DNA of 29,419 bases from a virus. Taxonomy: Duplodnaviria; Heunggongvirae; Uroviricota; Caudoviricetes. A program made the translations under genes and the position numbers. The notes below the pieces were generated by a model that had not been told where the DNA came from, made no database searches, and worked only from the letters and a program-made list of their open reading frames with translations. The stretch lies in IMG/VR virus record IMGVR_UViG_3300042341_001208; one strand, written 5' to 3'. This document shows, one piece after another, positions 10,036-26,279 of this stretch. Numbering within the stretch: the stretch's first letter is position 1; each line of letters starts with the position of its first letter.

Positions 10036-11163
10036 ATGTCGGGATTTTTAGAAAAATATAATATAGACGAGGTATTCCTAAGGGGAATTATCGTTGGACT
10101 TCTCAGAAGCTTAAATGAAAAAGTAACCTACACTCAGATTAATGAACAACAAGAAATATTGGAAGTTTACATTCCTTTTTTCTATTCAATGTCTGGAGAC
10201 GAATCTTTTTTACAGGACTTCTATTTAGACTATTTAGATTGTGACGGAAATTCTCCTTTTGCAGAGGGTAACTATGATATTATTCCTAGAGGAGTAGTAA
10301 CTTTTACTGGGGTTAATATAGATACAGCTTCAATAACAAATGGATTTGTAAGGGCAACTTATAACATTGAAACGGTAGAGGGACAGATGAAAGCATTTTC
10401 TGCTTATACGTCTTCTATTCCTCTTAGTATGACCTTTGATATAAAACTGAGAGCAGATACTTTATTAGATACATTTAAAATTTTCCAATCTGTAATTCAA
10501 ACTTTCTATAAAGTTTATAGTTTTAATGTTGAGTTTGGAGGAATGAGGGTTCCGGTTCAAGTTGGATTTCCTGAGCAATATCAAAATGACAAGCAATTAG
10601 AATTTACCTATTCAAATACACAAAAGTGGATCGAAACCAATTTTTCCATTCAAGTTGAAACTTATTATCCTCAGAAGGACATTGCAACTGAGAGATTTAG
10701 AGGAAATCTAATGCAAGCTGGAATTAAACTTAAACTTTCTATAGGGGATACTGTAATTGGAAGTTCAAGTTTATTTACAACTCCTGCTAATTCTAGTACC
10801 CCTGGCCTTCCTAGCCCAACTTCAAACTTACCTACTGTTTCTGTTCCAGCTAGCTCAACAGGAATAACTTTAAATCAAATCTCGGGATATTACATTAGTG
10901 AAGATTCTGTGAATGCTCAATTTGCTTCCCTTCAGATGTTCACAGGAGCCGGGGTAATTCCGGTAACTGCTCCTTACATAACTTACATAGATATGACACC
11001 TTTGGATATTTCCAATAAGGTTTTAGGGATAAATTTATTCATCACTGTTTCTTGTTCTTCTTTAGCGGGTAATGTGATAGCTACCAATGTTTCCGGATCA
11101 ACAATTACTTTTGAATCCAGCGTATCTGGGGTAGATTTTTATTTTACCGGGATATATACTTAA
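10036..11163 (+). CDS. gp15: Tail sheath stabiliser / tail completion protein (T4 gp15-like) with a Ser/Thr/Pro-rich C-terminal extension
   Basis: VYIPFFYSMSGDESF...IIPRGVVTF...IPLSMTFDIKLR...FQSVIQTF...VPV...IETNFSIQVETYYP follows the gp15/gp3 tail-terminator pattern (VP..Y...E.F; PR; P....F; L...EQI..F). Confidence 0.7.
   Translation: MSGFLEKYNIDEVFLRGIIVGLLRSLNEKVTYTQINEQQEILEVYIPFFYSMSGDESFLQDFYLDYLDCDGNSPFAEGNYDIIPRGVVTFTGVNIDTASITNGFVRATYNIETVEGQMKAFSAYTSSIPLSMTFDIKLRADTLLDTFKIFQSVIQTFYKVYSFNVEFGGMRVPVQVGFPEQYQNDKQLEFTYSNTQKWIETNFSIQVETYYPQKDIATERFRGNLMQAGIKLKLSIGDTVIGSSSLFTTPANSSTPGLPSPTSNLPTVSVPASSTGITLNQISGYYISEDSVNAQFASLQMFTGAGVIPVTAPYITYIDMTPLDISNKVLGINLFITVSCSSLAGNVIATNVSGSTITFESSVSGVDFYFTGIYT
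11151..11159 (+). promoter_or_regulatory. GATATATAC motif (putative late promoter)
   Basis: Lies within the last codons of the gp15-like gene, 18 nt upstream of the GTG at 11178. Confidence 0.5.
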
Positions 11164-11498: not shown

Positions 11499-11861
11499 AT
11501 GGCTTATAGAATACAATTTAGAAGAGATACATCTACAAACTGGGATAGTAACAATCCTATCCTTTTACAAGGAGAGTTTGGCTATGAACTTGATACCGGA
11601 TTTGCTAAAATTGGTGACGGATCCTCTACATGGGATCAATTAACTTATTTTGGAGGAACAGGTCCAACTGGACCAACTGGTTCAACTGGACCAACTGGTT
11701 CAACTGGTGTAACCGGATCAACTGGACCTTCTGTTTCTTCTCTAGCTCCTGGATCGTCGGGTGCTACCGGAACAACCGGAGAATTAGCTCTGGATACAAA
11801 CTATCTTTACGTTTGTGTTGGAACAAATACTTGGAAAAGAACCCAGATAACAGGCTGGTAA
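11499..11861 (+). CDS. Short tail-fibre-like protein: Mtd_N-type N-terminal domain, collagen-like G-X-T repeats, small C-terminal module
   Basis: [46 protein letters not shown] is the Mtd N-terminal domain pattern. It is followed by nine G-X-Y triplets and then [21 protein letters not shown]. Confidence 0.85.
11652..11732 (+). repeat. Coding tandem repeat: 9-bp G-X-T units, including two perfect copies of GGACCAACTGGTTCAACT (11670-11705)
   Basis: Encodes [27 protein letters not shown]. Confidence 0.9.
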
Positions 11862-11881
11862 TTTTTTAATAATGAATATTT

Positions 11882-11906
11882 AAAAGCCCTTTATTGGGGC
11901 TTTTTT
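11882..11906 (+). terminator. Intrinsic terminator ending the tail block
   Basis: Stem AAAAGCCC(T), loop TTATT, (G)GGGCTTTT followed by a T tract, about 20 nt after the stop at 11861. Confidence 0.85.
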
Positions 11907-11908
11907 GT

Positions 11909-11934
11909 GAAACAATTCTTAGCAGTAAACTATA
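11909..11934 (+). promoter_or_regulatory. Bipartite GAAACAAT-N10-AAACTATA motif (putative promoter of the glycan operon)
   Basis: Lies immediately after the terminator, 22 nt upstream of the ATG at 11957, and matches 3064-3088. Confidence 0.55.
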
Positions 11935-11956
11935 ATAGATAATAAATTATAGAATT

Positions 11957-12232
11957 ATGTCAGAACCAATAAAATTATCTCAAGAAGAATTAGATTCAAT
12001 TAAAGATCTAAGAGAAAAAATAAGATCTAACGTTGAAAAAATCGGAAGACTTAACATCAAAAGACACTTTACAGAGACCGAGTTGAATTTGATTAAAATG
12101 GATATAGATACGGAATATCTAGAAACAGAAGAATTGAGTAGACAGGAATCTAAAATTGTTGATTCTATCATAGCGAAATATGGTGATGGTGATTTAGACT
12201 TCACTACAGGTATCTACACTCCAAGATCTTAA
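11957..12232 (+). CDS. Small coiled-coil protein, 91 aa, first gene of the glycan operon
   Basis: Heptad-like charged helices ending in a KYGDGDLDFTTGIYTP beta-hairpin-like tail. Function unknown. Confidence 0.75.
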   Translation: MSEPIKLSQEELDSIKDLREKIRSNVEKIGRLNIKRHFTETELNLIKMDIDTEYLETEELSRQESKIVDSIIAKYGDGDLDFTTGIYTPRS

Positions 12233-12251
12233 TTTTTCTAACAACCAATTT

Positions 12252-14567
12252 GTGAGTAAAATAAAAATTTATGCACATGGGTCGTACATAGGAAATACCG
12301 GGTACAATCACCATACACGAGATTTTTTTAGATCTCTTTCTAAATATTTTCCGATCAAATTTAGAAATTTTACTGTAGGTGATTCTTGGAAAGGTCTAAG
12401 CGAAACCCCGCATGACGAAGAAGATTATCTAGATGACTTAGATAAAAATTTATTATACAGTCAAAGATTGTGGGTAGGGGAAGGTCGAATGGAGGATTTT
12501 AAAATATATCCTTCTTCAGAAAAAGAATTTGGAGCCGATCTTAATATAGTTCTAAATGAATCAAATCATTATTTATATTACGAAAAATATTCAGGACCCA
12601 AAATAGCATATAATGTTTGGGAATCAACCAGACAGACTGAAGAATTTTTTAAAAAATTAATATTATTTGATGAGATATGGGTTCCTAGTAAATGGCAAAG
12701 AGATTGTACTATAGATCAAGGAGCAAATCCAGACCAAGTTAAAGTTGTTCCTGAAGGAGTGGATGTTGATACTTTTTATCCAGAATCTGTTGATTTGCTT
12801 GACGAGTACAAGGATAAAAGATTTAAATTTCTTTTAATGGGAAGATGGGACTATAGAAAATCTACTAAAGAAATTATAGAAACTTTTCTAAAAACATTTT
12901 CACCGGAGGAACCCATAGATATTGTTGTCTCAATTGATAACATGTGGGGAGAAGAAATGGATGGATTTAAAACCACAGAGGAAAGACTAAAAAACTATGG
13001 ACTTTTGGATCCTAGAATTAAAATAATACACTTTCCAAAAAGAGAGGATTACATAAAATACCTTAAAACCGGACATGTCTTTCTTTCGTGTGCTAGATCT
13101 GAAGGATGGAATTTACCTTTGATTGAGGCCATGGCCTGTGGAACACCTTCTATCTATTCTGAGTGTTGCGCTCAGATGGAATTTGCAGAAGGTAAAGGAT
13201 TACCTGTTAAAATAATAGGGGAAAAGCCTGCAAATCAAAACACCTACGGCAGATACAGTATGGGTGATCTCCCAGGTAATTACTATGAACCGGATTTTAT
13301 TGATCTTTCTAGAGTTATGAGAGATGCCTATGAAAATTATGAATTTCACAAAAGTAAAGCTGTAGAAGAAAGTGTCGAGTTAAGAAGAAATTTTTCTTGG
13401 GAAGAGATTGCTAAAATAGGAAAATCAACAATAGAAGATTTTGTCGTAAAAGTAAATCAGCCCGGATACAATAAGAACAAAGACACTAATTCAATTCATA
13501 TTTCTTATTTAGATGGACCAAAGGTTGAGATTACTGGAGATTTTGAGTCTTCGTATCATATAGAGTTTATTGATTCTAAAACCGAGAAGATCATTCATTC
13601 GGAAACAATAACTAATAATATGTGGTGTGTTTGTTCAAGAAAATATTACACAGATTGGGTAATTAAGATCAACGGTAAAGTTGTTGACACTTTTGGACTT
13701 GAGGGTAAAAGAGTTTTAATTTCTTTTGAGTCTAAATCTATTGGGGATACAATTGCATGGGCTCCTTATGTAGTAGACTTCGAAAAAAAACACAAATGCA
13801 AGATTATATTATCTACATTTCATAATGACTGGTTTAAGGGGGTTAAAGAATACTCTAATTTTGAATTTATATCCCCCGGAAGTAACACAAATTGTTATGT
13901 TGTTTATAGAATTGGATGGTTTAGATCTAATGGAGGTAGATGGGACGATTTTAATTCATACCCAAATCCATTAAATTCACAGCCTCTCCAAAAGACATCT
14001 TCTGATATTTTGGGATTAGAATTTGAGGAAAGAAATTATGGAATTAATTTTACTCCGAGAAAAAATCCTATGACTGAAAAATATGTTGTAATTGCCCCGG
14101 AGTCTACCGCAGGATGTAAAGAATGGACTAGAGAAGGATGGGAAATTCTAACAAAGATGCTAACTGAAACTGGGATTCAGGTAATTTGTTTAACTCAAAA
14201 ACCATATTTTATTAAAGGAGCCCGTTGTATACATGGCAAAAATTTGGAAGAATCTATTAATATACTGTATCACTCCGAATATTTGATCGGACTGAGTTCA
14301 GGTCTTTCCTGGATTAATTGGTCGCTAAAAAAACACACAGTTATGATTAGTGGATTTACTGCTAAGGATCACGAATTTAAAACTAATATAACTAGAATAC
14401 AAAATTCAAATGCTTGTAATTCTTGTTGGGAAAATACAAATTTTATTTTTGATACTGGAGACTGGGATTGGTGTCCAGTCTGGAAGGGAACAGATAAACA
14501 ACACATTTGCTCAAAATCTATATCACCAATAACAGTATTTAATTTATTACCAGAGATAAAAAAATGA
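12252..14567 (+). CDS. Fusion of a GT4 glycosyltransferase and an autotransporter heptosyltransferase (TibC/AAH, BAHT-like) domain (GTG start)
   Basis: N-terminal half has GT4 motifs (GRWDYRK, SEGWNLPLIEAMACGTP). C-terminal half has SIGDTIAWAPY (D499), KEW, IGLSSGLSWINW and the iron finger C722-x2-C725-x15-C741-x11-C753. Confidence 0.85.
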   Translation: MSKIKIYAHGSYIGNTGYNHHTRDFFRSLSKYFPIKFRNFTVGDSWKGLSETPHDEEDYLDDLDKNLLYSQRLWVGEGRMEDFKIYPSSEKEFGADLNIVLNESNHYLYYEKYSGPKIAYNVWESTRQTEEFFKKLILFDEIWVPSKWQRDCTIDQGANPDQVKVVPEGVDVDTFYPESVDLLDEYKDKRFKFLLMGRWDYRKSTKEIIETFLKTFSPEEPIDIVVSIDNMWGEEMDGFKTTEERLKNYGLLDPRIKIIHFPKREDYIKYLKTGHVFLSCARSEGWNLPLIEAMACGTPSIYSECCAQMEFAEGKGLPVKIIGEKPANQNTYGRYSMGDLPGNYYEPDFIDLSRVMRDAYENYEFHKSKAVEESVELRRNFSWEEIAKIGKSTIEDFVVKVNQPGYNKNKDTNSIHISYLDGPKVEITGDFESSYHIEFIDSKTEKIIHSETITNNMWCVCSRKYYTDWVIKINGKVVDTFGLEGKRVLISFESKSIGDTIAWAPYVVDFEKKHKCKIILSTFHNDWFKGVKEYSNFEFISPGSNTNCYVVYRIGWFRSNGGRWDDFNSYPNPLNSQPLQKTSSDILGLEFEERNYGINFTPRKNPMTEKYVVIAPESTAGCKEWTREGWEILTKMLTETGIQVICLTQKPYFIKGARCIHGKNLEESINILYHSEYLIGLSSGLSWINWSLKKHTVMISGFTAKDHEFKTNITRIQNSNACNSCWENTNFIFDTGDWDWCPVWKGTDKQHICSKSISPITVFNLLPEIKK

Positions 14568-15286
14568 TAGACATTAGTAATTTTGATTGGGGTTGGATGG
14601 ACGAGCCTTGTGAAACTTATCAAATCATGTCAGATGGGACACACAAACCAATGGGACTTTATCATAAGGATTCCATCATTAAAGAAATTTTTGAGGGGGA
14701 AAGCATATATGAATTATTTTTTGAAGTGGAGGAAAATGATATTGTTCTTGATGTAGGAGCTAGCCTAGGTCCTTTCACCAGGTCTATTTTACACAAAAAT
14801 CCAAAGCATGTATTCTGTTTTGAACCAAGCTACAGAGAATTTAAAGTGTTAGTTAAAAATACCATGGGATATCAGGTAACTCCTATCTTTAAAGGAATTT
14901 CTGATAAGAATGGGATATCGGAATCTGATATGCTCTTTGGTGGAGAATCCGAAATGGAATCTATTACATTTAAATCTTTTATTGACTTATTTGGAATTGA
15001 TAAAATAGATTTCCTTAAAACCGACTGCGAAGGAGGGGAATATGATATTTTCACTAGTGGAAATCTTCCATATATAAAAGAGAACGTAAAAAAAATAGTT
15101 GGAGAATGGCATCTTAGTACAGATGAACTTAAGACTAAATTTAGAAATTTTAGAGATCATATATTACCAAACTTCAATAAAGTTATAATTTTTTCTGTAG
15201 ACGGGATTGACATTACCTGGGATTTGTGGAATGAACACTTCATTGAATATTATACCGAAATTATAATTCACATTGACAATAGATAA
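14564..15286 (+). CDS. FkbM-family SAM-dependent methyltransferase
   Basis: Contains VLDVGASLGPF, CFEP, IDKIDFLKTDCEGGEYDIF, IVGEWH. Confidence 0.9.
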   Translation: MIDISNFDWGWMDEPCETYQIMSDGTHKPMGLYHKDSIIKEIFEGESIYELFFEVEENDIVLDVGASLGPFTRSILHKNPKHVFCFEPSYREFKVLVKNTMGYQVTPIFKGISDKNGISESDMLFGGESEMESITFKSFIDLFGIDKIDFLKTDCEGGEYDIFTSGNLPYIKENVKKIVGEWHLSTDELKTKFRNFRDHILPNFNKVIIFSVDGIDITWDLWNEHFIEYYTEIIIHIDNR

Positions 15287-15288
15287 AA

Positions 15289-15933
15289 ATGGCACAAGGA
15301 GTACATAAAATTACGGAGGATTTTGAAAAATCACTATGCGATTATACCGGATCGCCTTATGCAGTTGCATTAGATAATATGAGCAATGCTTTATTTTTAG
15401 CCCTTTACTACGAAAAAAATATAAAGAAAAGTATTAAGGCTGGAACTGTCGATTGCCCTGCTAGAACTTATCCTTCCGTTCCGTGTGAAATAATTCACGC
15501 AGGTCTGAAGGTTAATTTTACCCCAGTGGAAGGGGATACCATAAAAGGAGCTTATCAGCTTTTTCCAAGCAACGTCTGGGATTCCGCTTTAAGATTTAGC
15601 GCTGATATGTATATCCCAAAAACCCATATGTGCTTATCCTTTACTGGACCATATAAAACACTGAAGCTGAGCAAGGGAGGAGCAATATTAACCGATGACT
15701 ATCAAGCAATGTTATGGTTCAAAAGAGCTAGATTTAGTGGGAGAAGAGAATGCTCATATCACGATGATAACTTTGATATGCTAGGATGGAATTTTTACAT
15801 GATGCCGGAACTCTCAGCAAGAGGACTTTTGATGATGACTCAGTTTTATAACATGGACGGGTCAAAAAAATACAACGAAGATCTAGAACTACCATATCCT
15901 GATTTATCAAAATTTGAAATTTATAAACAATGA
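15289..15933 (+). CDS. Short DegT/DnrJ/EryC1/StrS-family PLP-dependent sugar aminotransferase (214 aa)
   Basis: Contains FEKSLCDYTG, AVALDNMSNAL, WDSA, SFTGPYK (PLP lysine), GGAILTDD, GWNFYM. The usual C-terminal small domain is missing. Confidence 0.8.
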   Translation: MAQGVHKITEDFEKSLCDYTGSPYAVALDNMSNALFLALYYEKNIKKSIKAGTVDCPARTYPSVPCEIIHAGLKVNFTPVEGDTIKGAYQLFPSNVWDSALRFSADMYIPKTHMCLSFTGPYKTLKLSKGGAILTDDYQAMLWFKRARFSGRRECSYHDDNFDMLGWNFYMMPELSARGLLMMTQFYNMDGSKKYNEDLELPYPDLSKFEIYKQ

Positions 15934-16508
15934 AAAAAGCATTAGTCGGATATGGTGGACATGCCAAAGAAGTGATGGCACAAATGGGGTTAAATATTAC
16001 TTGTTTTGTAGACGACAAATATTTGATCACCGGAACAAAACCATTATCTGAATTTGATCCGAAAGAATACTCTTTGATGGTTGCAGTTGCAGACCCGATA
16101 GACAGACATAATATTATACAGAAACTTCCAAAAGAAACTAAATATTTTACCTGGATACATCCAACTGCTTTACTGATGGGGAAAATAGAAATCGGAGAAG
16201 GTAGCTTTATCGGTGCTTATTCTATTCTAACTACAAATATTAAAGTTGGAAGTCATTCAATCTTAAATAGGGGTAACCACATTGGCCACGACTGTATTAT
16301 AGGAAATTATTTCAGTGCAATGCCCGGATCTATAGTTTCAGGAAACGTTCATATAGGAAATATGGTTTATTTAGGAACAAATTCCTCCATAATAGAAAAA
16401 AAATACTTAGCACACAATATCAAAATAGGTGCAAATAGTGTAGTTATAAGAGATATAAAAGAACCTGGTATTTATGCTGGATCTCCTGCTAGAAAAATTT
16501 TAAAATGA
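15930..16508 (+). CDS. NeuD/PglD-family sugar acetyltransferase (left-handed beta-helix)
   Basis: N-terminal VGYGGHAKEV, IHPTA, hexapeptide repeats, GNHIGHDC, GIYAGSPARKI. Confidence 0.9.
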   Translation: MKKALVGYGGHAKEVMAQMGLNITCFVDDKYLITGTKPLSEFDPKEYSLMVAVADPIDRHNIIQKLPKETKYFTWIHPTALLMGKIEIGEGSFIGAYSILTTNIKVGSHSILNRGNHIGHDCIIGNYFSAMPGSIVSGNVHIGNMVYLGTNSSIIEKKYLAHNIKIGANSVVIRDIKEPGIYAGSPARKILK

Positions 16509-17494
16509 AAGATCTAATATTAATAACCTCATATTGTCCCGATGACCATAGAGAAAATATACTGAGAAATTTAGTTTATTCTTTAGAAAAATACAAAAGT
16601 AATTTTGAGGTTATGGTCGTAAGTCATACCCCAATTTCTTTAGACATTCAAAAAAAAGTTGAATTCTGCTTTTATGATAAAAAGAATGAAATCCTGACCG
16701 ATTGGGATCTCCTAAATCAACCTTGGTTTATCCCTAGCGGGGGAAGAAGAATTCAATCTTCTTTCCTTAGCAAAAAAAATACACATTTAGCAATCTGGAG
16801 GCTAATGATACTGGGATTTTCAAATGCCAAAAATTTAGGATTCTCAAAAGTCCATCATATAGAATATGATTGTGAGATAAATGAAATTAGTGAATTTCTA
16901 GAAAATAGCAGATTGTTAAATGAGAATAATAGTGTTGTCTATATGGATATTCAAGAAAGAATATCCCCTGTAATGTTTGGAAGTTTTCAATCTTACTTTA
17001 TTCCAAAAATCCACGAATTACTTGTTAATCTTAATGAAGAAAAAATTAAAGATTTAATAAGACATGCTATCTCTAAGTCTCCAGAGGGTCTTTTAAAACA
17101 ACTAATAGATGAAAGTGGTAATGTTGTTGTCAAGAACAGAGACGTTTTGAAAAAAAAAGGAAATAGATTTGGAATAATTAATAGCCAATCGATTAATAAA
17201 AATCCTTGGTCAGTTCCTTATTATGACTACTTAACAGAAACAGTCGATTTTATTTCCTGGAACACATCAAACAAAGAAGGCATAGAATATAAGATAATAA
17301 TAAATAATACCAATTTAGTTTACATCCCTAAAGTTTATATTGATTGCTGGACAATTAGGTCTCTGGGAAAAATAGAAGAAATTAATTCTATTATAGTTCT
17401 AGAAAATGAAATAATTAGAGATACTTTTTACCTGAATTCAGAATCAGACAGGGAATTATTTAAAAAAATGAGCTATAGAGTAGTAGAAGATTAA
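16505..17494 (+). CDS. Uncharacterised putative GT-A-like glycosyltransferase (paralogue of 20127-21107)
   Basis: N-terminal beta strand LILITSYC, then VMVVSHTPI, CFYDKKNEIL and an HIEYDCEI DxD-like motif. The operon context fits. Confidence 0.55.
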   Translation: MKDLILITSYCPDDHRENILRNLVYSLEKYKSNFEVMVVSHTPISLDIQKKVEFCFYDKKNEILTDWDLLNQPWFIPSGGRRIQSSFLSKKNTHLAIWRLMILGFSNAKNLGFSKVHHIEYDCEINEISEFLENSRLLNENNSVVYMDIQERISPVMFGSFQSYFIPKIHELLVNLNEEKIKDLIRHAISKSPEGLLKQLIDESGNVVVKNRDVLKKKGNRFGIINSQSINKNPWSVPYYDYLTETVDFISWNTSNKEGIEYKIIINNTNLVYIPKVYIDCWTIRSLGKIEEINSIIVLENEIIRDTFYLNSESDRELFKKMSYRVVED

Positions 17495-17496
17495 TA

Positions 17497-18048
17497 ATGA
17501 TTGAAAATATACATTTATGGCATGCTGACAGAGGAACTTATTTTGATCGAAATGTGAATATAATTTCGTGGAGTGACCAATATCAAATCAGATTAGGCCG
17601 ATATAATTCAATTGGTAGAGATTGTAACTTTTTCCTGCATGCAAACCATAGACCAGATTGGGTAACGACATCTTCCCAATTGTTAGGACCTGTTACGGAC
17701 GAAATTGCTCAAATGCACATGCAAATGGGACATCCCTCATGTAAGGGTGATATTATAATTCAAAATGATGTTTGGATCGGAGCAAAGTCTACTATAATGT
17801 CCGGGGTTAAAATATCTAACGGATCTATCGTTGGAGCTGGATCCGTGGTAACTAAGGATGTTCCCCCGTATGCAATTGTTGCCGGCAATCCGGCTAAGAT
17901 AGTTAAATCCAGGTTTACTGAGGAACAAATTGAAAAGTTATTAACTATTGCTTGGTGGAACTGGGACGAACAAAAAATTAGAGATAACTCGATGACTATG
18001 TGGTCAGATAATATAGATGAATTTATAAATAAATTTTATGAAAATTAA
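17497..18048 (+). CDS. CatB/Vat-like (XAT) hexapeptide O-acetyltransferase, probably acting on a sugar
   Basis: Contains LGRYNSIG, H....VTT, KGDIIIQNDVWIG, VGAGSVVTKDVPPYAIVAGNPAKIVKSRF, LLTIAWWNW. Confidence 0.85.
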   Translation: MIENIHLWHADRGTYFDRNVNIISWSDQYQIRLGRYNSIGRDCNFFLHANHRPDWVTTSSQLLGPVTDEIAQMHMQMGHPSCKGDIIIQNDVWIGAKSTIMSGVKISNGSIVGAGSVVTKDVPPYAIVAGNPAKIVKSRFTEEQIEKLLTIAWWNWDEQKIRDNSMTMWSDNIDEFINKFYEN

Positions 18049-19558
18049 TAAAGCAATTTTTGGTGTTGATGATTCTTACTTTTTAGAATTTTGGCCTATA
18101 CAAGCTAGGATTTGTAAAGAGTTATTAAACATAGAACCTGTTCTATTTTATATTTGTGATGAGGATAGCGACTTCTATAATGATGGGAACGGTTTAGTTA
18201 AGAAAATTAAAAAAGTAAAAAACACTCAAAATGGTAATGTAATAAATTCTGGATTACTTGCTTGTATTGTACGAATGTATGGCACGAAATATTTTCCAGA
18301 TGAGGTGTGTCTTACTTGCGATTTAGATATGCTAATGATTAATAAAGATTATTTCGTTAATCAAATTGAAAAATATGATAATGATAGTTTAGTTATTTAT
18401 TCAAGTGATGCGTATGATTTAAATAGACCAGAAGCGATTGAGCTGTTTAAAAATCAACCATTTCCTTTTACCCAAGAAATGTATAACTATCCATATAATG
18501 CGGCTAAAGGTAGAGTATTTGACAAAATTTTAGACACTAATTGTACTTTTGAAGAGTTTACTAATCGTCACGGAAATTATAAACCAGGATATCATTTTAT
18601 GTGGATGATTGATGAGTTTTATTTTGCGGATTGTGTAAATAATAAAAATCACGGTATTGAAGTTCATAAACTTAAAAGAGGATACATTTCTCCTTGGATT
18701 GCTGATAGAAGAATTGATAGAGGAAATTTCCCTGTTAAATTAGAGTGGGATGGTGAAATTGAATTCCAAAAAAAATATGGTATTTACGATGAAAAAAAAC
18801 TTAGAGATGGTTATTATATTGACGTAAATTGTTGTAGACCTTATAGCAAATATAAACAAGCGATAGATGATTTAATAGATATTGTATTGTGTGATAAAAA
18901 TAATATACAGAATAATATAATGTATGATTTAGGGATAAAACACCAAACGGATAAAATAGTACATCATAGATATGATAGGATTTATCCTTTATTTTTAGAT
19001 CGATTAAAAAACTCACCGATAAAACTTTTTGAAGTTGGATGTGGTTCTGATTATGCATCATTTAACATGTGGAAAGAATATTTTCCAAGCGGGATGATAT
19101 TTTCTATGGACATTAATGAAGAAATTGAAACAGATAGAGGCATAGTTTATAAAGGGGACCAAACCAAAGAAGAAGATCTAAATAGAATGGTCGAAATAAT
19201 TGGTAAGTGTGATATAATAATTGATGACGGAAGTCATGTACCGCAACACCAAATAGAAACATTTAATTATCTTTTTGAAAACATGCTAGAAAATGGTGGG
19301 ATTTATATTATTGAGGATATTGAGTGTAATTATTGGAATCCAAGAAATATGATTTACGATTACCAAATAGGTGACTATAATATTGTGGACTATTTTCAGT
19401 CTTTACCGCACAAAATAAACTCGGAATTTAGTAATATGAAAAATCATAAATCAATCTCGTCACTAACTTTTTTCAAAAATTGTATAATTTTAACTAAAAT
19501 GACATCTGATGAAATTGAAGAAAATAAACAAGAATATAGATTTAAAAATATGTTATGA
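18038..19558 (+). CDS. Fusion of a DxD-containing GT-like domain and a MycE/TylE-like sugar O-methyltransferase
   Basis: N-terminal half has CLTCDLDML. C-terminal half has TDK..HHRY...Y, FEVGCG, SMDI, GDQ, IIIDDGSH, GGIYIIEDI. Confidence 0.75.
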   Translation: MKINKAIFGVDDSYFLEFWPIQARICKELLNIEPVLFYICDEDSDFYNDGNGLVKKIKKVKNTQNGNVINSGLLACIVRMYGTKYFPDEVCLTCDLDMLMINKDYFVNQIEKYDNDSLVIYSSDAYDLNRPEAIELFKNQPFPFTQEMYNYPYNAAKGRVFDKILDTNCTFEEFTNRHGNYKPGYHFMWMIDEFYFADCVNNKNHGIEVHKLKRGYISPWIADRRIDRGNFPVKLEWDGEIEFQKKYGIYDEKKLRDGYYIDVNCCRPYSKYKQAIDDLIDIVLCDKNNIQNNIMYDLGIKHQTDKIVHHRYDRIYPLFLDRLKNSPIKLFEVGCGSDYASFNMWKEYFPSGMIFSMDINEEIETDRGIVYKGDQTKEEDLNRMVEIIGKCDIIIDDGSHVPQHQIETFNYLFENMLENGGIYIIEDIECNYWNPRNMIYDYQIGDYNIVDYFQSLPHKINSEFSNMKNHKSISSLTFFKNCIILTKMTSDEIEENKQEYRFKNML

Positions 19559-20130
19559 AAAATAAAGAAGAAAAAATTGAAGAATTACTACTTACACCAA
19601 GAATGTTTTATAGTGATTTTAAACCTAGATATAATCAATTGAAAGGTTTAAAAATGCTGATAGATAAATTTATTGATGATAATATGACCATGGTTGAAAT
19701 AGGTTCTTTTGCTGGGGTTAGTAGTGAATTATTCTCACTACACTGTAAAAAAATATATTGTGTTGACTTATGGGACCCATATTGGGAAATAACAGATAAA
19801 CAAAAAGTAGAATTTGCGGAGTATTCTTTTGATAAGATGTCTAAAAATTATAACAATATAGTAAAAATTAAAAATAGTAGTGTCGAAGCGGCAAAACAAT
19901 TTGATGATAACTCTTTAGATTTTGTTTATATTGATGCGGCACATGACTATGAAAGTGTAAGGCAGGATATTTTAACTTGGTTACCAAAGGTTAAAAAGGG
20001 AGGATATATCGGAGGACATGATTTTAGATTTGATGAAAACATCGGTGTATATGAAGCTGTTAATGATATTTTTTGTTACGATTATATGATAACATCATTC
20101 CCTGATTCAAGTTTTGTTGTAGAAGTATGA
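19555..20130 (+). CDS. Class I SAM-dependent methyltransferase (Methyltransf_24-like)
   Basis: Contains VEIGSFAGVS, CVDLW, LDFVYIDAAHDYESVRQDI..WLPKVKKGGYIGGHDF. Confidence 0.9.
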   Translation: MKNKEEKIEELLLTPRMFYSDFKPRYNQLKGLKMLIDKFIDDNMTMVEIGSFAGVSSELFSLHCKKIYCVDLWDPYWEITDKQKVEFAEYSFDKMSKNYNNIVKIKNSSVEAAKQFDDNSLDFVYIDAAHDYESVRQDILTWLPKVKKGGYIGGHDFRFDENIGVYEAVNDIFCYDYMITSFPDSSFVVEV

Positions 20131-21107
20131 GAAAAATAGTTTTAATAAGTTCATATTGCGATACTCAGGAAAAAATTGATATTTTATACGACAATATAAA
20201 AATATTAAAGGGGTTAGATTTAGATACGTTAGTAATAAGTCCAATCACATTACCTGAAGACATAATAGAACTATCTGATTTTGTTTTTTTTACAAAAGAA
20301 AATCCTTTGCTAAATTGGCCGGTTCGTGGATTTACTTTTTGGGAAACAAATTTTTCTAAAGATGGTTGGATGACCATGCACAGAAATGTTGCGGAATATG
20401 GATGGGCTGGTTTATACCAAATAAAAAAAATGAGTCAAATTGCATTAAGTTATGATTACGATTATTTTTATCACATAATATATGATTTGGAAATTGATGA
20501 ATACGTTATTGATACTATAAATTCTAATATAACTAACTTAGTACATCCAAGAATTAATCCTAATAATAATGATGATTGGTGGGATTGTACTCTGCATTTT
20601 ATGATATTTGATAGGGAAATAATGGGTAAAATTGTTGATGTAATAAATCTTGATGATTATTTGAAGCTGGATGGTGTTGCCGAAGGACAAGCGTTATTAT
20701 GGACTAAATTATTCCCAATCCAAATTTCAAAAACACCAGTAAGAGATAAAATTTATTATTGGGGTGACAGGGGATTTTTTGATTACTCAATGAACCCAAA
20801 ATATAAATTATTTATTAGTAAAAATACACCAACAACCTGTTGGATTTCTGAAGACGATGTTAATATTGAAAAACCAATATCCTCTAACCTTAGATTTTAT
20901 ATTTATGACATCAAAGAACCTCAAAAATTAACATTCAATTTAGATGAAGTTCTTTATGAGAGAGAATTAAGTGAAAATGAAATTTTTGAGTTTGAAGTAG
21001 ATTCAAATACAATAAAAAATATAAAATTAATTGACACTTATGGTGAGTATGATTACTCTACTATCTATAAAGAAATTGATAGAAATTTAATTTACTTAGG
21101 ACATTAG
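20127..21107 (+). CDS. Uncharacterised putative GT-A-like glycosyltransferase (paralogue of 16505-17494)
   Basis: Contains IVLISSYC, TLVISPITL, VFFTKENPLL and HIIYDLEI, colinear with the 16505 protein and of similar length (326 vs 329 aa). Confidence 0.55.
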   Translation: MRKIVLISSYCDTQEKIDILYDNIKILKGLDLDTLVISPITLPEDIIELSDFVFFTKENPLLNWPVRGFTFWETNFSKDGWMTMHRNVAEYGWAGLYQIKKMSQIALSYDYDYFYHIIYDLEIDEYVIDTINSNITNLVHPRINPNNNDDWWDCTLHFMIFDREIMGKIVDVINLDDYLKLDGVAEGQALLWTKLFPIQISKTPVRDKIYYWGDRGFFDYSMNPKYKLFISKNTPTTCWISEDDVNIEKPISSNLRFYIYDIKEPQKLTFNLDEVLYERELSENEIFEFEVDSNTIKNIKLIDTYGEYDYSTIYKEIDRNLIYLGH

Positions 21108-21135
21108 AAGACTAACTTAAATATTAATTAAAAAT

Positions 21136-21525
21136 ATGATATACAATCCAAAAATTTACATAGATAAAAGTCCGATCCATGGTTGGGGGGTTTTTGCCAA
21201 AGAGCATATAAAGGAAGGAGAAATATTCGAGGTTTGTCCTGTTATCACACTCCCCATCAATAAAGGAGAATCCAGTTCTCTTTTAATAGACTATAGATTC
21301 AACTGGCCACAGGGAAATGAATGGGAAGAACAAGTTTTCTCTTTCGGTTTTGGTGGGTTGTATAACCATAGAAATGATGCAAATTCTTATTGGAGATCCA
21401 ATATTGAAAACAAAACTTTTGAATTTATTGCACACAGGGACATTTTTCCAGGGGAGGAAATTTTCATCTGGTATGGAGACATAGGGTATTGGAACGACGG
21501 GAGAACTCACACGGAAGTGATATAG
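21136..21525 (+). CDS. Minimal SET-domain protein-lysine methyltransferase (vSET-like)
   Basis: Contains KSPIHGWGVFA, GEIFEVCP, GFGGLYNH, GEEIFIWYG..YW. No pre-SET or post-SET cysteine domains. Confidence 0.92.
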   Translation: MIYNPKIYIDKSPIHGWGVFAKEHIKEGEIFEVCPVITLPINKGESSSLLIDYRFNWPQGNEWEEQVFSFGFGGLYNHRNDANSYWRSNIENKTFEFIAHRDIFPGEEIFIWYGDIGYWNDGRTHTEVI

Positions 21526-21547
21526 TTTTTTAATATATAAATAGGAT

Positions 21548-21571: not shown

Positions 21572-24500
21572 ATGAAAAACTTATTTAAACTTCTGCTTCT
21601 TTCTTTGCTCTTGTTCTTACCTGCAAAAGCTAGTGCTACCCATATGATGGGTGGAGACATTTCCTATGAATGTATTTCACCAGGTAAGTATAAATTATTC
21701 ATAAAAATCTATAGGGATTGTAGAGGTATTTCATTTAACAACCCAACAATTAGTGCTTATTGTGTTGATGGAAATGGTGGTATTACTAATAATACTCCTA
21801 TAACATATACAAGAACAGCTATCAATGACATTACACCAAATTGTTCTTCAGGTACTGCGCCATGTAATCCTGAAAACACTACAGTAACTTCTGAAGGTAT
21901 TGAAGAACATGTTTTTGAAGCTATCATGGATTTTAATACAGATCCTTTTAAAGCTTTAAAGGATGCAGGTTGTTGTGAAATTAGAATTAAAGTAGAACAG
22001 TGTTGTAGAAACGATGCTATAAATACTATCAATCCCGGAAATTTCTTTACTGATGCAATGATTAACATCTGTAACATTGCTAAAACTAAAAAAAAATGTA
22101 ACACTTCTCCTCAATTATCTATACCTCCTGTTGCTTATATTTGTTGTAACCAACCATTTAGATATAATAATGGTGTTCGTGAAGTTACTGATGGTGATAG
22201 TTTATCTTATGAACTTTCAACTCCATTAAGCGCTCATAACACTAATGAAAACTATGCTGGTGGGTTTAATTCTCAAATTCCAATGACTCCTTATTGTCCT
22301 CCAAATCCAGGAATTATTAATTGCAGACCATTACCTAATGCTAATCCACCAAGAGGTATTTATTTTGATAAAGAAACAGGTGATATTGTTTTTACACCTA
22401 CAAAATGTGATGAAGTAGGAGTTATAGTAATTCAAATTAATGAATGGAGAAAGGATTCTACAACTAATAAATGGATACTAATCGGTTTTACAAGACGGGA
22501 TATGCAACTTATTGTTAAACAATGTCCTGATAACAACCCACCTTCATTTCCTGACTCTAAAAACAAATACTCTGTATGTGAAGGAGAAAAAATATGTTTT
22601 AGAATTAAAACAAAAGATGATCCGTTTTTACCTAATCAAACAAGAGCAGACACTACTACTTTAACTTGGAACAACGGTATTCCAGGTGCTACTTTTAATA
22701 TAGTAAATTTAAATGTTAGGGAAAGAGAAGCAGAATTTTGTTGGACTACTAAAATTGGAGATGCTAGACCTAATCCTTATTCATTTACAGTTACAGTCAA
22801 AGATGATAATTGTCCCAAACCAGCATCAGCTAATAGAGGTTATAATATTACTGTTGCACCTAGAGCTGTAGATACCCGTAAGTATACCGTTTTAGATTGT
22901 GGTAAATTAAAGTTTACAGCCACTCCTAAAGATACAGTTAACTACAATCCTAAAAACTATAGATACAAATATGTAATTAGAGATTCAACAAACAGCGGTG
23001 TTCCGTTTTTTATGACTTTTAACAGAACTGATAGTTTTAAATTTAAACGTGGTGGAAAATATATCATTGAACACGAAATCAATAATCCTCCGTTCAATTG
23101 CCCAACCATTTATTCAGATACTATTATTATACCACCTGTATTAGATGTTGAGTTATCCTTTGGTAAAGACACATTTATATGTGCAGGTAATTCATTAACA
23201 GTAGAACCAATTGTAGCTTATGGTTTTGCTCCTTATAAATTTAGATGGGAAGTGCCTGTTGGAACTCATAATCCTGCAGATACTTTAAATAAAATTACCA
23301 TTACACCAACTCAGACGACTCGGATTGCACTTAGACTTACCGATAAAAATAAATGTGTAGACTCTGATACCATTTTGATTAAATACATTAAAAATCCTAT
23401 CGTTGACCTTGGTCCTGACCGAAGAATATGTACTTATGATTTTGCTACATTAGATGCTCAAAATGCAGATACTCTAATGTATGAATGGAGTTCGAATGGA
23501 GTTACGATTATTGGATCAAGTACCCTTGTAGTAAATTTATACGAAAAAATATTCCCTTCTCAAAAGTATTCAGTTAAGGTATTAGATAGTGTTTACAAAT
23601 GTTTTGATACTGATACAATAGAGGTATTTGTCAATGACACAGTTATAGCTCTTTCTGGAGGGGATAGAGAAATTTGTATTTTTGATACCTTAAAAGTTAC
23701 ATCTAAACGTAAGCCATTGGGATACACTCGTCAAATTACTTGGAGAGATATTATTTCTGGTACAACTATGGCAACTGATAGCGCTTTCAGTTTAAGAATA
23801 TCCACACTTGCGACTCGTAAATATGAAATGCTTTTAAGAGTTAATCAAAAAGGAGTTATCTGTGAAGACTTAGACACATTTACTTTAACTGTTAATCCAT
23901 TACCTGCCTTTACTCCAACAATACTACCACCTAGATGTTATCAAGATGGTGCTATTAATTTAAATTTAGCTAACTTTGCTACTGCAAATAATAAAACAAT
24001 TCCTGCTGACTCGATTAGATTCTTTCAAACTAAAACACCAAGTTGGATTACAGGTGGTCCTGTAGGTAGAAATACTTTTGTTTGGAATTTTCCAATTTAC
24101 ATTACTAACGCTCAAGTACCTAAAGCAGGTTTAACTGATGTAATTAGTTATGATTATAGAGATAAAAAAGGATGTTATAATAGAGGTAGTCATTCAATTA
24201 GATTAAATCCTAATCCTGTAGTTAAATTAAGAGAAAGATCATTTTGTCAAAAACCCTATCTCCCAACAAATGGGTCTGGTAATACATCAGGGTCTCAATA
24301 TGGAGAAAGTTTAGTAGATCTTAGCGTTTTAATAGTGTCTCCGTTCTCTAGAATTGGTGGTATAGAAACATTTAGATGTTTATCTGTTCCTGATGGTTCA
24401 GGTGTTAATCCCGATCTTATTATATTTTGGGATAATTCAATCCCTGCAAAGCCATTATTTGATCCCGGATCTCCTGAAGAACCTCAAAAAACAGGTAAAT

Positions 24501-26245
24501 ACGAAATAGAGTATTGTTTCCAAGATGCAGTTTCAGGTTGTAAATCATGTGATTCAGTAATAATTGACGTTATTAAATTACCTGAAATACAATTTGAATT
24601 TATACCTAGTCAATGTATTAACTTTCCTGAGTTAGATTTAAATAACTATGCTAAAGATAGAAACACAGATAAGTTTTTAGTAGATGGAATTTGGTCTACT
24701 GTTGAGTTTAGAAATTCAAGAGATAAATCAAATCCTACTATATCAAATGCTTTAAACAACTCAATAAAATTAAACAAATTCAACCCATCAGTTGCTGGAG
24801 CAGGACAGTATTTAATAAAATTATTTGATAATTCAAGTGGTTGTTTAGTTGAGGATAGTATAGAGGTAGTAGTTAATGGTTTACCTATTGTTAAAATAGA
24901 TTTGCCTGACACTATTTGTTCAAGTTTATCTACATTAGAATTAACAAGTATACAACCCGGAGGAAATGTAGGTAAATGGTCAGGTGAAGGAGTTGTTGGA
25001 AATGAATTTGATCCAAGTATTTCTCCTAAATCAAAACAATATGAAGGAAAATATAGAGTTAAATTTGAATATACAAACCCAATAACCAAATGTACAGATA
25101 CTACAGCAGATCTTATATTAATACAAACTCAACCACAGATTGATATACTAAATTCTAATCCATACCAACAATGTGAAGATAAACAATTTATATTAAATGG
25201 TGATAAAAAATGGGTTAAAGATATTATTTGGAAAACTAATGGTGATGGATCATTTGTAAGACAAGGTAATGATTTGATTCAACTATATAATTATGGAATC
25301 GGTGATACATCATTAGATGTTAGAAATGGTAGAGTTTTAATTACTTTGGAAAGTGTTGAAGAAGGTGTTTGTCCTTCAGCTAAAGATGATATTCAATTAA
25401 TTATAGAACCGTTACCACAATTTAATTTTATTGGTAATCCATTAATTCAGTGTGAACCAGGTAGAGTTGATTTTACTTCAATAGTTAGAAAACCATTAAG
25501 TAATATAAAATATGAATGGGAGTTTGGTAATAACGGTATATCAACCATAGCTAATCCAATTAATATTAAATATGATACTGCTAATAGAAATTGGTATGAT
25601 GTAACTTTAATAGTAACAAATGATTGGGGTGGAGGTGTTTGTCAGAGTGTATTAACAAAAGAAGATTATATAAAAATACTACCTGTACCTGATGCTCAGT
25701 TTATTAATGAACCTAATTTTACAACAGTAGCATTTCCTAAATTTAAATTTATCAATCAAACTCAGATTCGATGGGGATTAGATAGTGTTAAATACTTATG
25801 GTCTTTTGACTTTCCTGATACTGAAGACACTTCAACTCAAATCAATCCAATTAAAAATTATCTAGCAGACACTTCAGGATATTGGGTAAACTTAACTTCA
25901 AGTTTTACATATGAAGATGTTACTTGTTTAGATTCAACCTCAAATATACTAACTATAGGTCCTGATGTTATTGTTTTTGCTCCAACAGCGTTTAGTCCTG
26001 AAAGAACAGGACCTGATAGAAATAATAAATTCTACATTACAGTTAGCGGAGAAAAAACATTCGAAGCTATGTTGTTTAATAGATGGGGAGAAATTCTATG
26101 GAAAACTAAAGATAAAAATGAAGGTTGGGACGGTACCTACAAAAGAGAAGACTCACAACAAGACGTTTATGTTTGGAGAGTAAAGGTTTCTGCTTATGAT
26201 GGTAAAGTATATTATTACGAAGGAACGGTAACCCTACTAAGATAA
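21572..26245 (+). CDS. Large secreted Bacteroidota-type surface protein: SPI signal peptide, Cys-rich N-terminal domain, Ig-like/PKD repeats, gliding-motility-associated type-B T9SS C-terminal domain (CHU_C)
   Basis: Begins MKNLFKLLLLSLLLFLPAKASA|THMMGGDISYEC...YRDC. PKD segments include KYEWEFG..NP...Y and YLWSF..NP..Y. Ends VFAPTAFSP..PDRNNKF...LFNRWGE.LW....GWDGTY...DVYVW....EGTVTLLR. Confidence 0.92.
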   Translation: MKNLFKLLLLSLLLFLPAKASATHMMGGDISYECISPGKYKLFIKIYRDCRGISFNNPTISAYCVDGNGGITNNTPITYTRTAINDITPNCSSGTAPCNPENTTVTSEGIEEHVFEAIMDFNTDPFKALKDAGCCEIRIKVEQCCRNDAINTINPGNFFTDAMINICNIAKTKKKCNTSPQLSIPPVAYICCNQPFRYNNGVREVTDGDSLSYELSTPLSAHNTNENYAGGFNSQIPMTPYCPPNPGIINCRPLPNANPPRGIYFDKETGDIVFTPTKCDEVGVIVIQINEWRKDSTTNKWILIGFTRRDMQLIVKQCPDNNPPSFPDSKNKYSVCEGEKICFRIKTKDDPFLPNQTRADTTTLTWNNGIPGATFNIVNLNVREREAEFCWTTKIGDARPNPYSFTVTVKDDNCPKPASANRGYNITVAPRAVDTRKYTVLDCGKLKFTATPKDTVNYNPKNYRYKYVIRDSTNSGVPFFMTFNRTDSFKFKRGGKYIIEHEINNPPFNCPTIYSDTIIIPPVLDVELSFGKDTFICAGNSLTVEPIVAYGFAPYKFRWEVPVGTHNPADTLNKITITPTQTTRIALRLTDKNKCVDSDTILIKYIKNPIVDLGPDRRICTYDFATLDAQNADTLMYEWSSNGVTIIGSSTLVVNLYEKIFPSQKYSVKVLDSVYKCFDTDTIEVFVNDTVIALSGGDREICIFDTLKVTSKRKPLGYTRQITWRDIISGTTMATDSAFSLRISTLATRKYEMLLRVNQKGVICEDLDTFTLTVNPLPAFTPTILPPRCYQDGAINLNLANFATANNKTIPADSIRFFQTKTPSWITGGPVGRNTFVWNFPIYITNAQVPKAGLTDVISYDYRDKKGCYNRGSHSIRLNPNPVVKLRERSFCQKPYLPTNGSGNTSGSQYGESLVDLSVLIVSPFSRIGGIETFRCLSVPDGSGVNPDLIIFWDNSIPAKPLFDPGSPEEPQKTGKYEIEYCFQDAVSGCKSCDSVIIDVIKLPEIQFEFIPSQCINFPELDLNNYAKDRNTDKFLVDGIWSTVEFRNSRDKSNPTISNALNNSIKLNKFNPSVAGAGQYLIKLFDNSSGCLVEDSIEVVVNGLPIVKIDLPDTICSSLSTLELTSIQPGGNVGKWSGEGVVGNEFDPSISPKSKQYEGKYRVKFEYTNPITKCTDTTADLILIQTQPQIDILNSNPYQQCEDKQFILNGDKKWVKDIIWKTNGDGSFVRQGNDLIQLYNYGIGDTSLDVRNGRVLITLESVEEGVCPSAKDDIQLIIEPLPQFNFIGNPLIQCEPGRVDFTSIVRKPLSNIKYEWEFGNNGISTIANPINIKYDTANRNWYDVTLIVTNDWGGGVCQSVLTKEDYIKILPVPDAQFINEPNFTTVAFPKFKFINQTQIRWGLDSVKYLWSFDFPDTEDTSTQINPIKNYLADTSGYWVNLTSSFTYEDVTCLDSTSNILTIGPDVIVFAPTAFSPERTGPDRNNKFYITVSGEKTFEAMLFNRWGEILWKTKDKNEGWDGTYKREDSQQDVYVWRVKVSAYDGKVYYYEGTVTLLR

Positions 26246-26256
26246 TTTATTCTGAC

Positions 26257-26279
26257 GATATATAAGAGGGGAAACCCTC
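26257..26279 (+). promoter_or_regulatory. GATATATAA motif (putative late promoter) immediately followed by a GAGGG-GAAA-CCCTC GNRA hairpin
   Basis: Motif at 26257-26265 and hairpin at 26266-26279, in the 52-nt gap before the neck gene. Confidence 0.55.

Follow-up and report, generated by a model that had tools for sequence, protein, structure and literature searches.

Elaborate machinery for glycan synthesis encoded by viruses is known mainly from giant viruses of eukaryotes, and to our knowledge virion glycosylation by phage-encoded enzymes has been proven experimentally for mycobacteriophages only. We have analyzed a 29,419-nucleotide (nt) stretch, referred to below as the window, of the IMG/VR record IMGVR_UViG_3300042341_001208, which is from a virus of the Caudoviricetes. 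At positions 11957–21107 it contains a ten-gene operon of glycosyltransferases and sugar-tailoring enzymes. The closest described counterparts of this operon are, in homology, the enzymes TibC and Aah of Escherichia coli; in system logic, the fibril cluster of Mimivirus; and in acceptor logic, the collagen-like protein BclA of Bacillus anthracis. Judging from its sequence, we consider it fairly probable that the operon serves to O-glycosylate protein in the cytoplasm, with a fibre of the virion as the target.

The TibC-TibA and Aah-AIDA-I systems of E. coli (PDB 4RAP/4RB4; PMC4358343) depend on a GT-B enzyme homologous to one domain of the phage operon, and the family of this enzyme, the bacterial autotransporter heptosyltransferases (BAHT), is cytoplasmic and modifies Ser residues of a protein with repeats. 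The phage protein, the product of gene 2, differs from TibC and Aah in being phage-encoded and fused to a second glycosyltransferase of the GT4 type, in having no autotransporter nearby, and in belonging to a ten-gene tailoring operon, with a collagen-like fibre as the likely acceptor. It also lacks the thumb and has Ser in place of R286, as discussed below. Cluster R132-L143 of Mimivirus (Acanthamoeba polyphaga mimivirus, APMV) makes the 2-O-methyl Vio4NAc of the fibrils (review PMC9614988). Like the phage operon, it provides a virus-encoded set of soluble enzymes, namely a DegT-type aminotransferase, an N-acetyltransferase of the viosamine type, a sugar O-methyltransferase, and a number of glycosyltransferases, which in Mimivirus decorate the virion fibrils with an O-methylated 4-acetamido-4,6-dideoxy-hexose. 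Mimivirus differs, however, in being a giant eukaryotic virus with no BAHT-type enzyme and with unrelated fibril carrier proteins, and its glycans have been solved experimentally.

The repeats of BclA are of the GXT type. The anthrose oligosaccharide ends in an O-methylated, N-acylated 4-amino-4,6-dideoxy-glucose, for which an aminotransferase, an N-acyltransferase, an O-methyltransferase, and glycosyltransferases are needed. BclA is described as a collagen-like glycoprotein carrying an anthrose-capped oligosaccharide (PMC6222408). This protein sits on the spore surface of a Gram-positive bacterium, and the resemblance to the phage operon is in logic only. Mycobacteriophages are said to use one or two glycosyltransferases acting on the C-termini of capsid and tail-tube proteins, and neither a BAHT domain nor a collagen-like acceptor or an operon for sugar tailoring is known from them. 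The modification of virion proteins by glycosyltransferases of mycobacteriophages has been documented (Freeman et al. 2023, cited in PMC12582341). Another viral glycosyltransferase, the GT-A capsid enzyme A64R of Chlorovirus PBCV-1 (PDB 2P73), is among the structural matches of gene 6; the similarity is at the level of the fold only (about 10% identity), and gene 6 has an extra beta-sandwich domain. From the GtrABC or Wzx/Wzy seroconversion cassettes the phage operon differs in having no predicted integral membrane components. A literature search found no paper tying TibC-type enzymes to phages or to collagen-like proteins, and none relevant for Microcystis phage Mel-JY01, which is the closest cultured carrier of the gene 2 fusion (45% protein identity).

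Two neighboring genes are central to the proposed function:

11499..11861, + strand: 120-residue (aa) mini-fibre, the candidate acceptor, with an Mtd_N-type N-terminus followed by Gly-X-Thr/Ser collagen-like triplets (Pfam Mtd_N 2.4e-16, Collagen 5.5e-6; PHROG tail-fibre families)
12252..14567, + strand: gene 2, 771-aa fusion of a GT4 domain (about aa 107–388) and a TibC/Aah-type protein O-glycosyltransferase (aa 411–765) (TIGR04414, PDB 4RAP, PHROG)

By profile and residue comparison, the C-terminal domain of gene 2 is a genuine member of the BAHT family. It scores 231.8 bits with TIGR04414 against a curated equivalog cut-off of 200, covering profile positions 8–370 of 374 (232.1 bits in a six-frame search), and aligns to residues 23–380 of TibC (PDB 4RAP) with an E-value of 7.8e-44. 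The functional residues of TibC have been defined as the base D110, the sugar-binding T226, K230, R286, and W305, and the iron-finger C339, C342, C358, and C370 (PMC4358343). The catalytic base corresponds to D499 of gene 2, which is invariant in 172 of 172 phage homologues, and T226, K230, and W305 correspond to T619, K623, and W687. All four iron-finger Cys are retained as C722, C725, C741, and C753 (kept in 166–167 of 172), and iron binding is predicted. Taken with the three sugar-binding positions and the base, they are conserved in 164–172 of the 172 distinct phage homologues. At the stereo-selectivity position, P300 in TibC, gene 2 has a Ser, like Aah (positions per PMC4358343). The GT4 half matches PF00534 with 40.3 bits (gathering threshold 26.4; aa 187–311) and a PHROG glycosyltransferase family with 3.1e-29 (aa 107–388). 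No autotransporter domain was detected in the window proteins scanned, and the neighbor of gene 2 is instead the collagen-like fibre. The TibC-like enzyme is widespread, with more than 120 protein clusters of 64–96% identity and 76 IMG/VR loci, including stand-alone forms.

The first sugar is likely a heptose, which is our best guess because relatives carry genes resembling heptose-7-phosphate kinase, heptose-1-phosphate adenylyltransferase, and ADP-heptose epimerase in the same operon. These are HldE-like kinase and adenylyltransferase halves and an HldD-like epimerase (L092 984–4103, L091 20343–21143, L004 20071–20871), all of them under the equivalog cut-offs, and they suggest ADP-heptose synthesis encoded by the relatives themselves. 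No HldE/HldD-type ADP-heptose genes were found in the available 89 kb of the present phage.

The mini-fibre is the sole collagen-like open reading frame (ORF) of the 89-kb record. The operon follows it directly, within a tail/neck module between gp15-like and neck genes; the fibre gene thus occupies what we take to be the place of fibritin (wac) in T4. In close relatives the fibre is longer, 290 or 389 aa, contains extended GSS/GTS runs, and is globular at its C-terminus. Of 12 TibC-like gene clusters for which 4 kb or more of upstream sequence was available, 9 had a collagen-like ORF in the locus; in about six of these nine, Ser/Thr made up 60–100% of the X and Y positions, several of these ORFs being free of proline, and in three the fibres were Pro-rich. 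Among control loci anchored at the tail sheath gene, a collagen-like ORF of at least 30 triplets was present in 6 of 8 with the enzyme versus 0 of 16 without it (Fisher p = 0.0002, for loci that are related and not independent events). The association extends to bacterial loci and metagenome-assembled genomes, where 11 of 19 loci carrying a relative of the enzyme have a proline-free Ser/Thr collagen-like ORF, and in contigs of Methylomicrobium and Bordetella sputigena (135–595 kb) the collagen-like ORF immediately adjoins the TibC-like gene. In another phage lineage the TibC-like gene lies directly 5' of the tail sheath, tube, and hub genes, with a 1426-aa Pro-rich collagen-like tail fibre upstream. 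It is this recurrence of the enzyme-fibre pairing across unrelated contexts that forms the main argument for the fibre as the substrate. The preliminary description of this DNA, made from the sequence alone, had proposed a methylated and acetylated glycan on a cytoplasmic acceptor, most simply the virion, and the proposal gains support from the TibC/Aah-type domain, the tail/neck position beside a fibre gene, and the recurrent pairing.

Two arrangements may be recorded here. On chromosome-sized contigs from Methylomicrobium, Bordetella sputigena, and uncultured Gammaproteobacteria (L175 11214–11924, L181 11236–12534, L185 8735–9652), a TibC-like gene stands beside a short proline-free Ser/Thr collagen-like ORF. 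In L033 995–9999 (also L019, L048, L056), the TibC-like gene is preceded by the 1426-aa fibre, a fusion of a glycosyltransferase with a 2-oxoglutarate (2OG)-Fe(II) oxygenase, a second 2OG oxygenase, and two phrog_13607 proteins, a layout which recalls the collagen hydroxylase/glucosyltransferase L230 of Mimivirus.

Several points weigh against fibre glycosylation by a TibC-like mechanism. The sugar-binding R286 of TibC is replaced by S668 in gene 2 and varies among S, V, A, I, and R across the phage homologues. The beta-hairpin thumb (F265/V266) of the TibC dodecamer is deleted, with a gap of 9 residues opposite TibC 263–271 in the pairwise alignment. Because of these two changes the donor sugar and the oligomeric state may differ from those of TibC: the quaternary structure probably does differ, and the donor may. 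The known BAHT substrates are beta-helical autotransporters and not collagen-like repeats, and the fibre in the window holds only about a dozen triplets. The acceptor is proposed from gene neighborhood, and several of the co-occurrence counts come from related phages and are not independent events. The record, moreover, covers about 35% of the genome, and the missing part may hold genes for other acceptors. Lipid-linked intermediates are a further possible substrate of soluble glycosyltransferases.

The other nine genes of the operon are as follows:

11957..12232, + strand: gene 1, helical protein of 91 aa whose family, marked by a conserved KYGDG...TG motif, is confined to viruses (Pfam, PHROG, and NCBIfam without a match)
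14564..15286, + strand: gene 3, FkbM-family S-adenosylmethionine (SAM) methyltransferase (PF05050 36.9 bits, TIGR01444 46.8 bits, both over cut-offs)
15289..15933, + strand: gene 4, 214-aa shortened DegT-type protein, or mini-DegT, of the sugar aminotransferase fold (PF01041 41.9 bits, profile positions 26–98 only)
15930..16508, + strand: gene 5, NeuD/PglD/VioB-type N-acetyltransferase of 4-amino-sugar nucleotides (TIGR03570, PDB matches)
16505..17494, + strand: gene 6, GT-A fold glycosyltransferase with a C-terminal beta-sandwich, opening the variable cassette (AlphaFold2 model with mean local confidence, pLDDT, of 95.9; Foldseek)
17497..18048, + strand: gene 7, CatB/Vat-type hexapeptide acetyltransferase (NCBIfam Vat/CatB 1.6e-38, under equivalog cut-offs; PDB CatB 4e-35)
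18038..19558, + strand: gene 8, GT8-like GT-A domain (aa 1–290) fused to a MycE/TylE-type metal-dependent sugar O-methyltransferase (about aa 296–437) (PDB and atlas matches)
19555..20130, + strand: gene 9, Methyltransf_24 SAM methyltransferase (PF13578 66.3 bits)
20127..21107, + strand: gene 10, distantly paralogous to gene 6 (BLASTP E 4e-6 between the two, in an alignment that spans 137 N-terminal aa and takes in the YD-x-E motif)

The ten ORFs, all on the + strand, are tightly coupled, with ATGA start/stop overlaps at 14564, 15930, 16505, 19555, and 20127, 2-nt gaps at 15287–8 and 17495–6, and an overlap of 11 nt at 18038–18048. The preliminary description had given the ten-gene operon correctly, in its ORFs and in every junction. 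The domain count is five glycosyltransferases (GT4, the TibC/Aah-type BAHT domain, and three GT-A), three methyltransferases (FkbM, MycE/TylE-like, and Methyltransf_24), two acetyltransferases (VioB/PglD-like and CatB/Vat-like), and one mini-DegT. It agrees with the earlier tally except that the aminotransferase listed there is a shortened form of 214 aa.

The operon proteins had been described as free of transmembrane helices, and indeed none of the ten has a 19-residue window above 1.2 on the Kyte-Doolittle scale, on which the signal peptide of a neighboring 1557-aa protein, as a positive control, reaches 1.80. No hydrophobic 19-mer above 1.5 is present in the 10 operon proteins or in 16 proteins of a second glycan cluster described below. 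The reported absence of Wzx/Wzy, initiating phosphoglycosyltransferase, and GtrAB-type genes also holds, as no flippase, polymerase, initiating phosphoglycosyltransferase, or GtrAB-like family is among the Pfam matches of the operon or of the 14-kb second cluster. The step taken earlier from the absence of helices to a cytoplasmic acceptor is weak by itself, because many glycosyltransferases of lipopolysaccharide (LPS) and O-antigen pathways, usually including those of the GT4/GT9 type, are peripheral and helix-free. This leaves room for a different function, in which soluble enzymes at the inner face of the membrane, with host export doing the rest, would remodel the LPS, capsule, or surface glycoproteins of the host against superinfection or re-adsorption of released virions. 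We regard such envelope remodeling as unlikely. The TibC-like domain does match LPS heptosyltransferase I weakly, with 24 bits, but this is far under the cut-off of 185 for that model, while the protein-specific cut-off of TIGR04414 is passed. The classical BAHT substrates are exported surface adhesins (PMC4358343), and the cassette-like variability described below resembles that of O-antigen loci. Against these stand the lack of the membrane and initiating functions just listed, the position of the operon in a structural tail/neck module beside a fibre gene, and the pairing with collagen-like genes that recurs across lineages.

Comparison of the operon between related phages, which the preliminary description had suggested, separates a conserved core, genes 1–5, from a swappable cassette, genes 6–10. 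The gene order kept in relatives is PKD protein, gp15-like protein, 104-aa protein, fibre, genes 1–5, a variable block, SET protein, and neck protein, and the same flanks enclose at least four different variable blocks. One contig, 92% identical to the window in nucleotide sequence, differs from it at two places only, the repeat and C-terminal region of the fibre (11761–11930) and genes 6–10 (16518–21114). The G+C content is 27–29% in genes 6, 8, 9, and 10 versus 32–37% in genes 2–5 and 7. The pattern suggests that cassettes are exchanged here and that the locus is under diversifying selection, which would be expected of a surface glycan; since genes 6–10 are swappable, related phages would display different glycans.

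The same comparison bears on whether the operon serves an exported protein. The 1557-aa protein (window 21572–26245), encoded 465 nt downstream of the operon, has a hydrophobic N-terminus predicted as a signal peptide, PKD repeats, and a CHU_C domain of the type IX secretion system (T9SS). This protein, or T9SS adhesins of the host, might be glycosylated before export as AIDA-I is by Aah, and BAHT enzymes classically modify adhesins ahead of Sec export (PMC4358343). However, the 1557-aa gene is an insertion relative to L003, L004, and L091, in which the operon core is kept and the neck gene comes immediately after the SET gene. Because relatives with the operon are without this gene, its product cannot be a conserved substrate and was rejected as such. 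We consider an exported target improbable, more so than envelope remodeling.

Of all operon proteins, the mini-DegT is conserved best (81–87% identity versus 64–78% for gene 2). Its homologues number 7602; the best 120 clusters have 213–231 aa (mostly 214) and are 81–87% identical, and in view of this length and identity a truncated pseudogene was rejected. Canonical sugar aminotransferases (about 360–390 aa) have a C-terminal domain that is missing from the mini-DegT, and its large domain is some 60 residues shorter than theirs. Its AlphaFold2 model (pLDDT 77) gave Foldseek matches at probability 1.0 solely to sugar aminotransferases, with template modeling (TM) scores of 0.45–0.58, and to dehydratases. 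K123 is opposite the Lys of PseC (2FN6) in the region IKPITTAEGGA, in an alignment that is weak (E 0.096). It may be a minimal pyridoxal phosphate enzyme. Gene 5 scores 157.4 bits with TIGR03570, slightly short of the cut-off of 160.8, with PglD_N and Hexapep over their Pfam cut-offs, and its PDB matches are VioB (6e-24, the closest), PglD (2e-17), and perosamine N-acetyltransferase (7e-14).

In the cassette, gene 6 has Foldseek matches at probability 1.0 to TarS, glycogenin, and PBCV-1 A64R (2P73), and its D122 is invariant within an H-x2-E-Y-D motif in 93 homologues. Gene 10 aligns within the gene 6 family alignment (A1) and on this basis would be a GT-A glycosyltransferase as well. The N-terminal domain of gene 8 has atlas structure matches to GT8 families (TM 0.55–0.61), and its methyltransferase domain matches TylE (PDB 8IA9, 1.2e-17) and MycE (3SSM, 9e-17) with an identical IIDDGSH metal motif. 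Gene 7 is probably an O-acetyltransferase. Sequence comparison of genes 3 and 9 with solved structures returned nothing useful.

Enzymes like MycE/TylE, FkbM, and CatB/Vat are typical of natural-product tailoring, and the operon might be read as an auxiliary metabolic island whose product, a glycoconjugate either free or bound to lipid, or else a glycoside of a small molecule, has no link to virion proteins. No scaffold genes (polyketide synthase, nonribosomal peptide synthetase, or lipid carrier enzymes) are nearby, though, the TibC-like domain is protein-directed, and the position of the operon is structural, so that we give this the slimmest chance of the alternatives. Hardly more probable is the hypermodification of phage DNA with sugars and methyl groups against restriction, after the manner of the glucosyl-hydroxymethylcytosine of T-even phages. 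T4-like phages are known to glycosylate DNA, and gene 9 matches a PHROG labeled DNA methyltransferase. Yet the lead enzyme is from a protein-glycosylating family, the others match sugar-nucleotide aminotransferases, N-acetyltransferases, and macrolide-sugar O-methyltransferases, the association is with fibre genes, and the 89-kb record, though incomplete, shows no hydroxymethylase of the thymidylate-synthase type.

The operon had been called both sugar-building and sugar-decorating. The decorating enzymes are present, but profile searches found no nucleotidyltransferase and no 4,6-dehydratase among the ten genes, and therefore the operon is not a self-contained sugar pathway. PF00483 (nucleotidyltransferase), PF01467 (cytidylyltransferase-like), and PF00303 (thymidylate-synthase-type) are without a match in the 89-kb record, which is uninformative as the record is itself only about 35% complete. 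Some 16 genes form a second soluble glycan cluster at G000:C1:43300-56700 (L084 3644–17026), on the minus strand of the record, which is the + direction of the window, about 3.5–17 kb before the window start. Its sugar genes encode an RmlD-like reductase, an RfbH-like DegT protein (428 aa), a full-length DegT protein (381 aa), and a PseB-like UDP-GlcNAc 4,6-dehydratase, and further enzymes are a hexapeptide acetyltransferase and a prolyl-hydroxylase-type 2OG-Fe(II) oxygenase. Six glycosyltransferases are annotated by Pfam (GT17-, GT11-, GT2/GT92-, GT2-, GT31-, and GT2-like), and the DUF3431 and DUF5672 proteins may be further transferases. Glycan synthesis thus takes well over 20 kb of this phage, and the operon is one of two modules.

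The glycosylation of the virion fibre, which we favor, could proceed as follows. What the analysis itself establishes are the identities of the domains, the conserved residues, the solubility of the proteins, the synteny, and the exchange of cassettes; the acceptor, the sugars, the order of the steps, and the biological role are inferred. The operon would act in late infection, and its most likely target would be the collagen-like Gly-X-Thr/Ser fibre encoded just upstream. Keto-sugar nucleotides, supplied by the host or by the second glycan cluster, would be converted by the mini-DegT and the VioB/PglD-like enzyme to a 4-acetamido-4,6-dideoxy-hexose. The TibC-like half of gene 2 would prime Ser/Thr of the fibre in the cytoplasm, likely with heptose, and the fused GT4 half would add a second sugar. 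The chain would be extended by three GT-A enzymes (gene 6, the N-terminal domain of gene 8, and gene 10) and capped by the three methyltransferases and the CatB/Vat-like acetyltransferase, and the decorated fibre would then be built into the particle.

A broader proposal, which we offer tentatively and with less than even confidence, is that a highly abundant group of aquatic T4-like jumbo phages, together with many other phage lineages, starts O-glycans on proline-poor Ser/Thr collagen-like fibres with a TibC-type iron-finger enzyme. The glycans would be strain-specific, heptose-based, methylated, and acetylated, and diversified by swappable cassettes as in bacterial O-antigen loci. What appears new here is a known protein-glycosylating family in a phage, a new likely class of acceptor, and an unusually rich, modular tailoring operon. 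If the proposal is true, the BAHT family gains this class of acceptor and its substrate range extends to collagen-like repeats, and a family hitherto known only for virulence-associated modification of enterobacterial adhesins becomes a common tool of environmental phages. Phage particles would then carry a glycan 'serotype' layer that affects adsorption or survival, and the exchangeable cassettes could set host range, particle stickiness, resistance to grazing, or antibody recognition.

The window is 29.4 kb of a viral record of 89,451 bp, which is about 35% complete according to CheckV, and the genome would therefore be roughly 250 kb in size; contigs bearing relatives of the window genes reach 238–399 kb. 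Several relatives stem from metagenome samples of apparently lacustrine or estuarine origin. The record has a T4-like gene set with UvsX, a gp41-type helicase, and gp47/gp46 (Mre11/Rad50), together with structural genes for a neck protein and a tail protein that matches gp15 weakly. The nearest relatives of its UvsX are in huge uncultured phages and Prevotella Lak phages (35–39% identity). A Bacteroidota host is pointed to by the phage ORF with the CHU_C type IX secretion domain. A nucleotide search with the operon against 50,697 phage records gave zero matches. In one relative, a gene resembling GIY-YIG/NUMOD homing endonucleases is inserted between a 161-aa gene and gp47 (L003 3366–4145), and the window is without this insert.

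The gene 1 family, which accompanies the TibC-like gene, consists of coiled-coil proteins of 83–92 aa with an invariant K-Y-G-x-G ... G near the C-terminus, and its atlas neighbors are all viral and without a name. Here it is upstream of the TibC-like gene; elsewhere it is downstream, between the TibC-like and tail sheath genes (L017 2399–2647, L041 3875–4126, L070 2618–2869, and others). A predicted complex of the TibC-like domain with the gene 1 product scored 0.04, which speaks neither for nor against binding. In a PADLOC scan of all ten proteins the sole match was a 20-bit generic methyltransferase for gene 9, and the GT4-conflict family PF20706 was matched with 15.3 bits, under its cut-off of 26.

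Three further features flank the operon:

11882..11910, + strand: terminator-like hairpin (11882–11904) and T-run, lying after the fibre gene and before the operon (folding energy −12.4 kcal/mol, z = −2.78)
11907..11936, + strand: best sigma-70-like promoter match 5' of gene 1, a candidate (10/12 positions match)
21136..21525, + strand: SET-domain protein of 129 aa, 28 nt 3' of the operon (PF00856 59.3 bits)

The case for the promoter-like motif described earlier ahead of the operon is weak: such sites are not enriched in the operon region, with 72 observed versus 91.8 expected from shuffles. The SET gene may be co-transcribed with the operon. It comes after the operon in every close relative, L003, L004, and L091 among them, and lies near the TibC-like gene in the rearranged L008-L010 and L092, which suggests a second protein-modifying activity, lysine methylation, tied to the same module. 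Upstream of gene 1 there is no clear copy of a GATATATA-like motif, a candidate late-promoter element, which occurs 20–35 nt upstream of the PKD, 104-aa, neck, and T9SS-cargo genes (window 9141, 11150–11160, 26255–26265, and 21530–21545).

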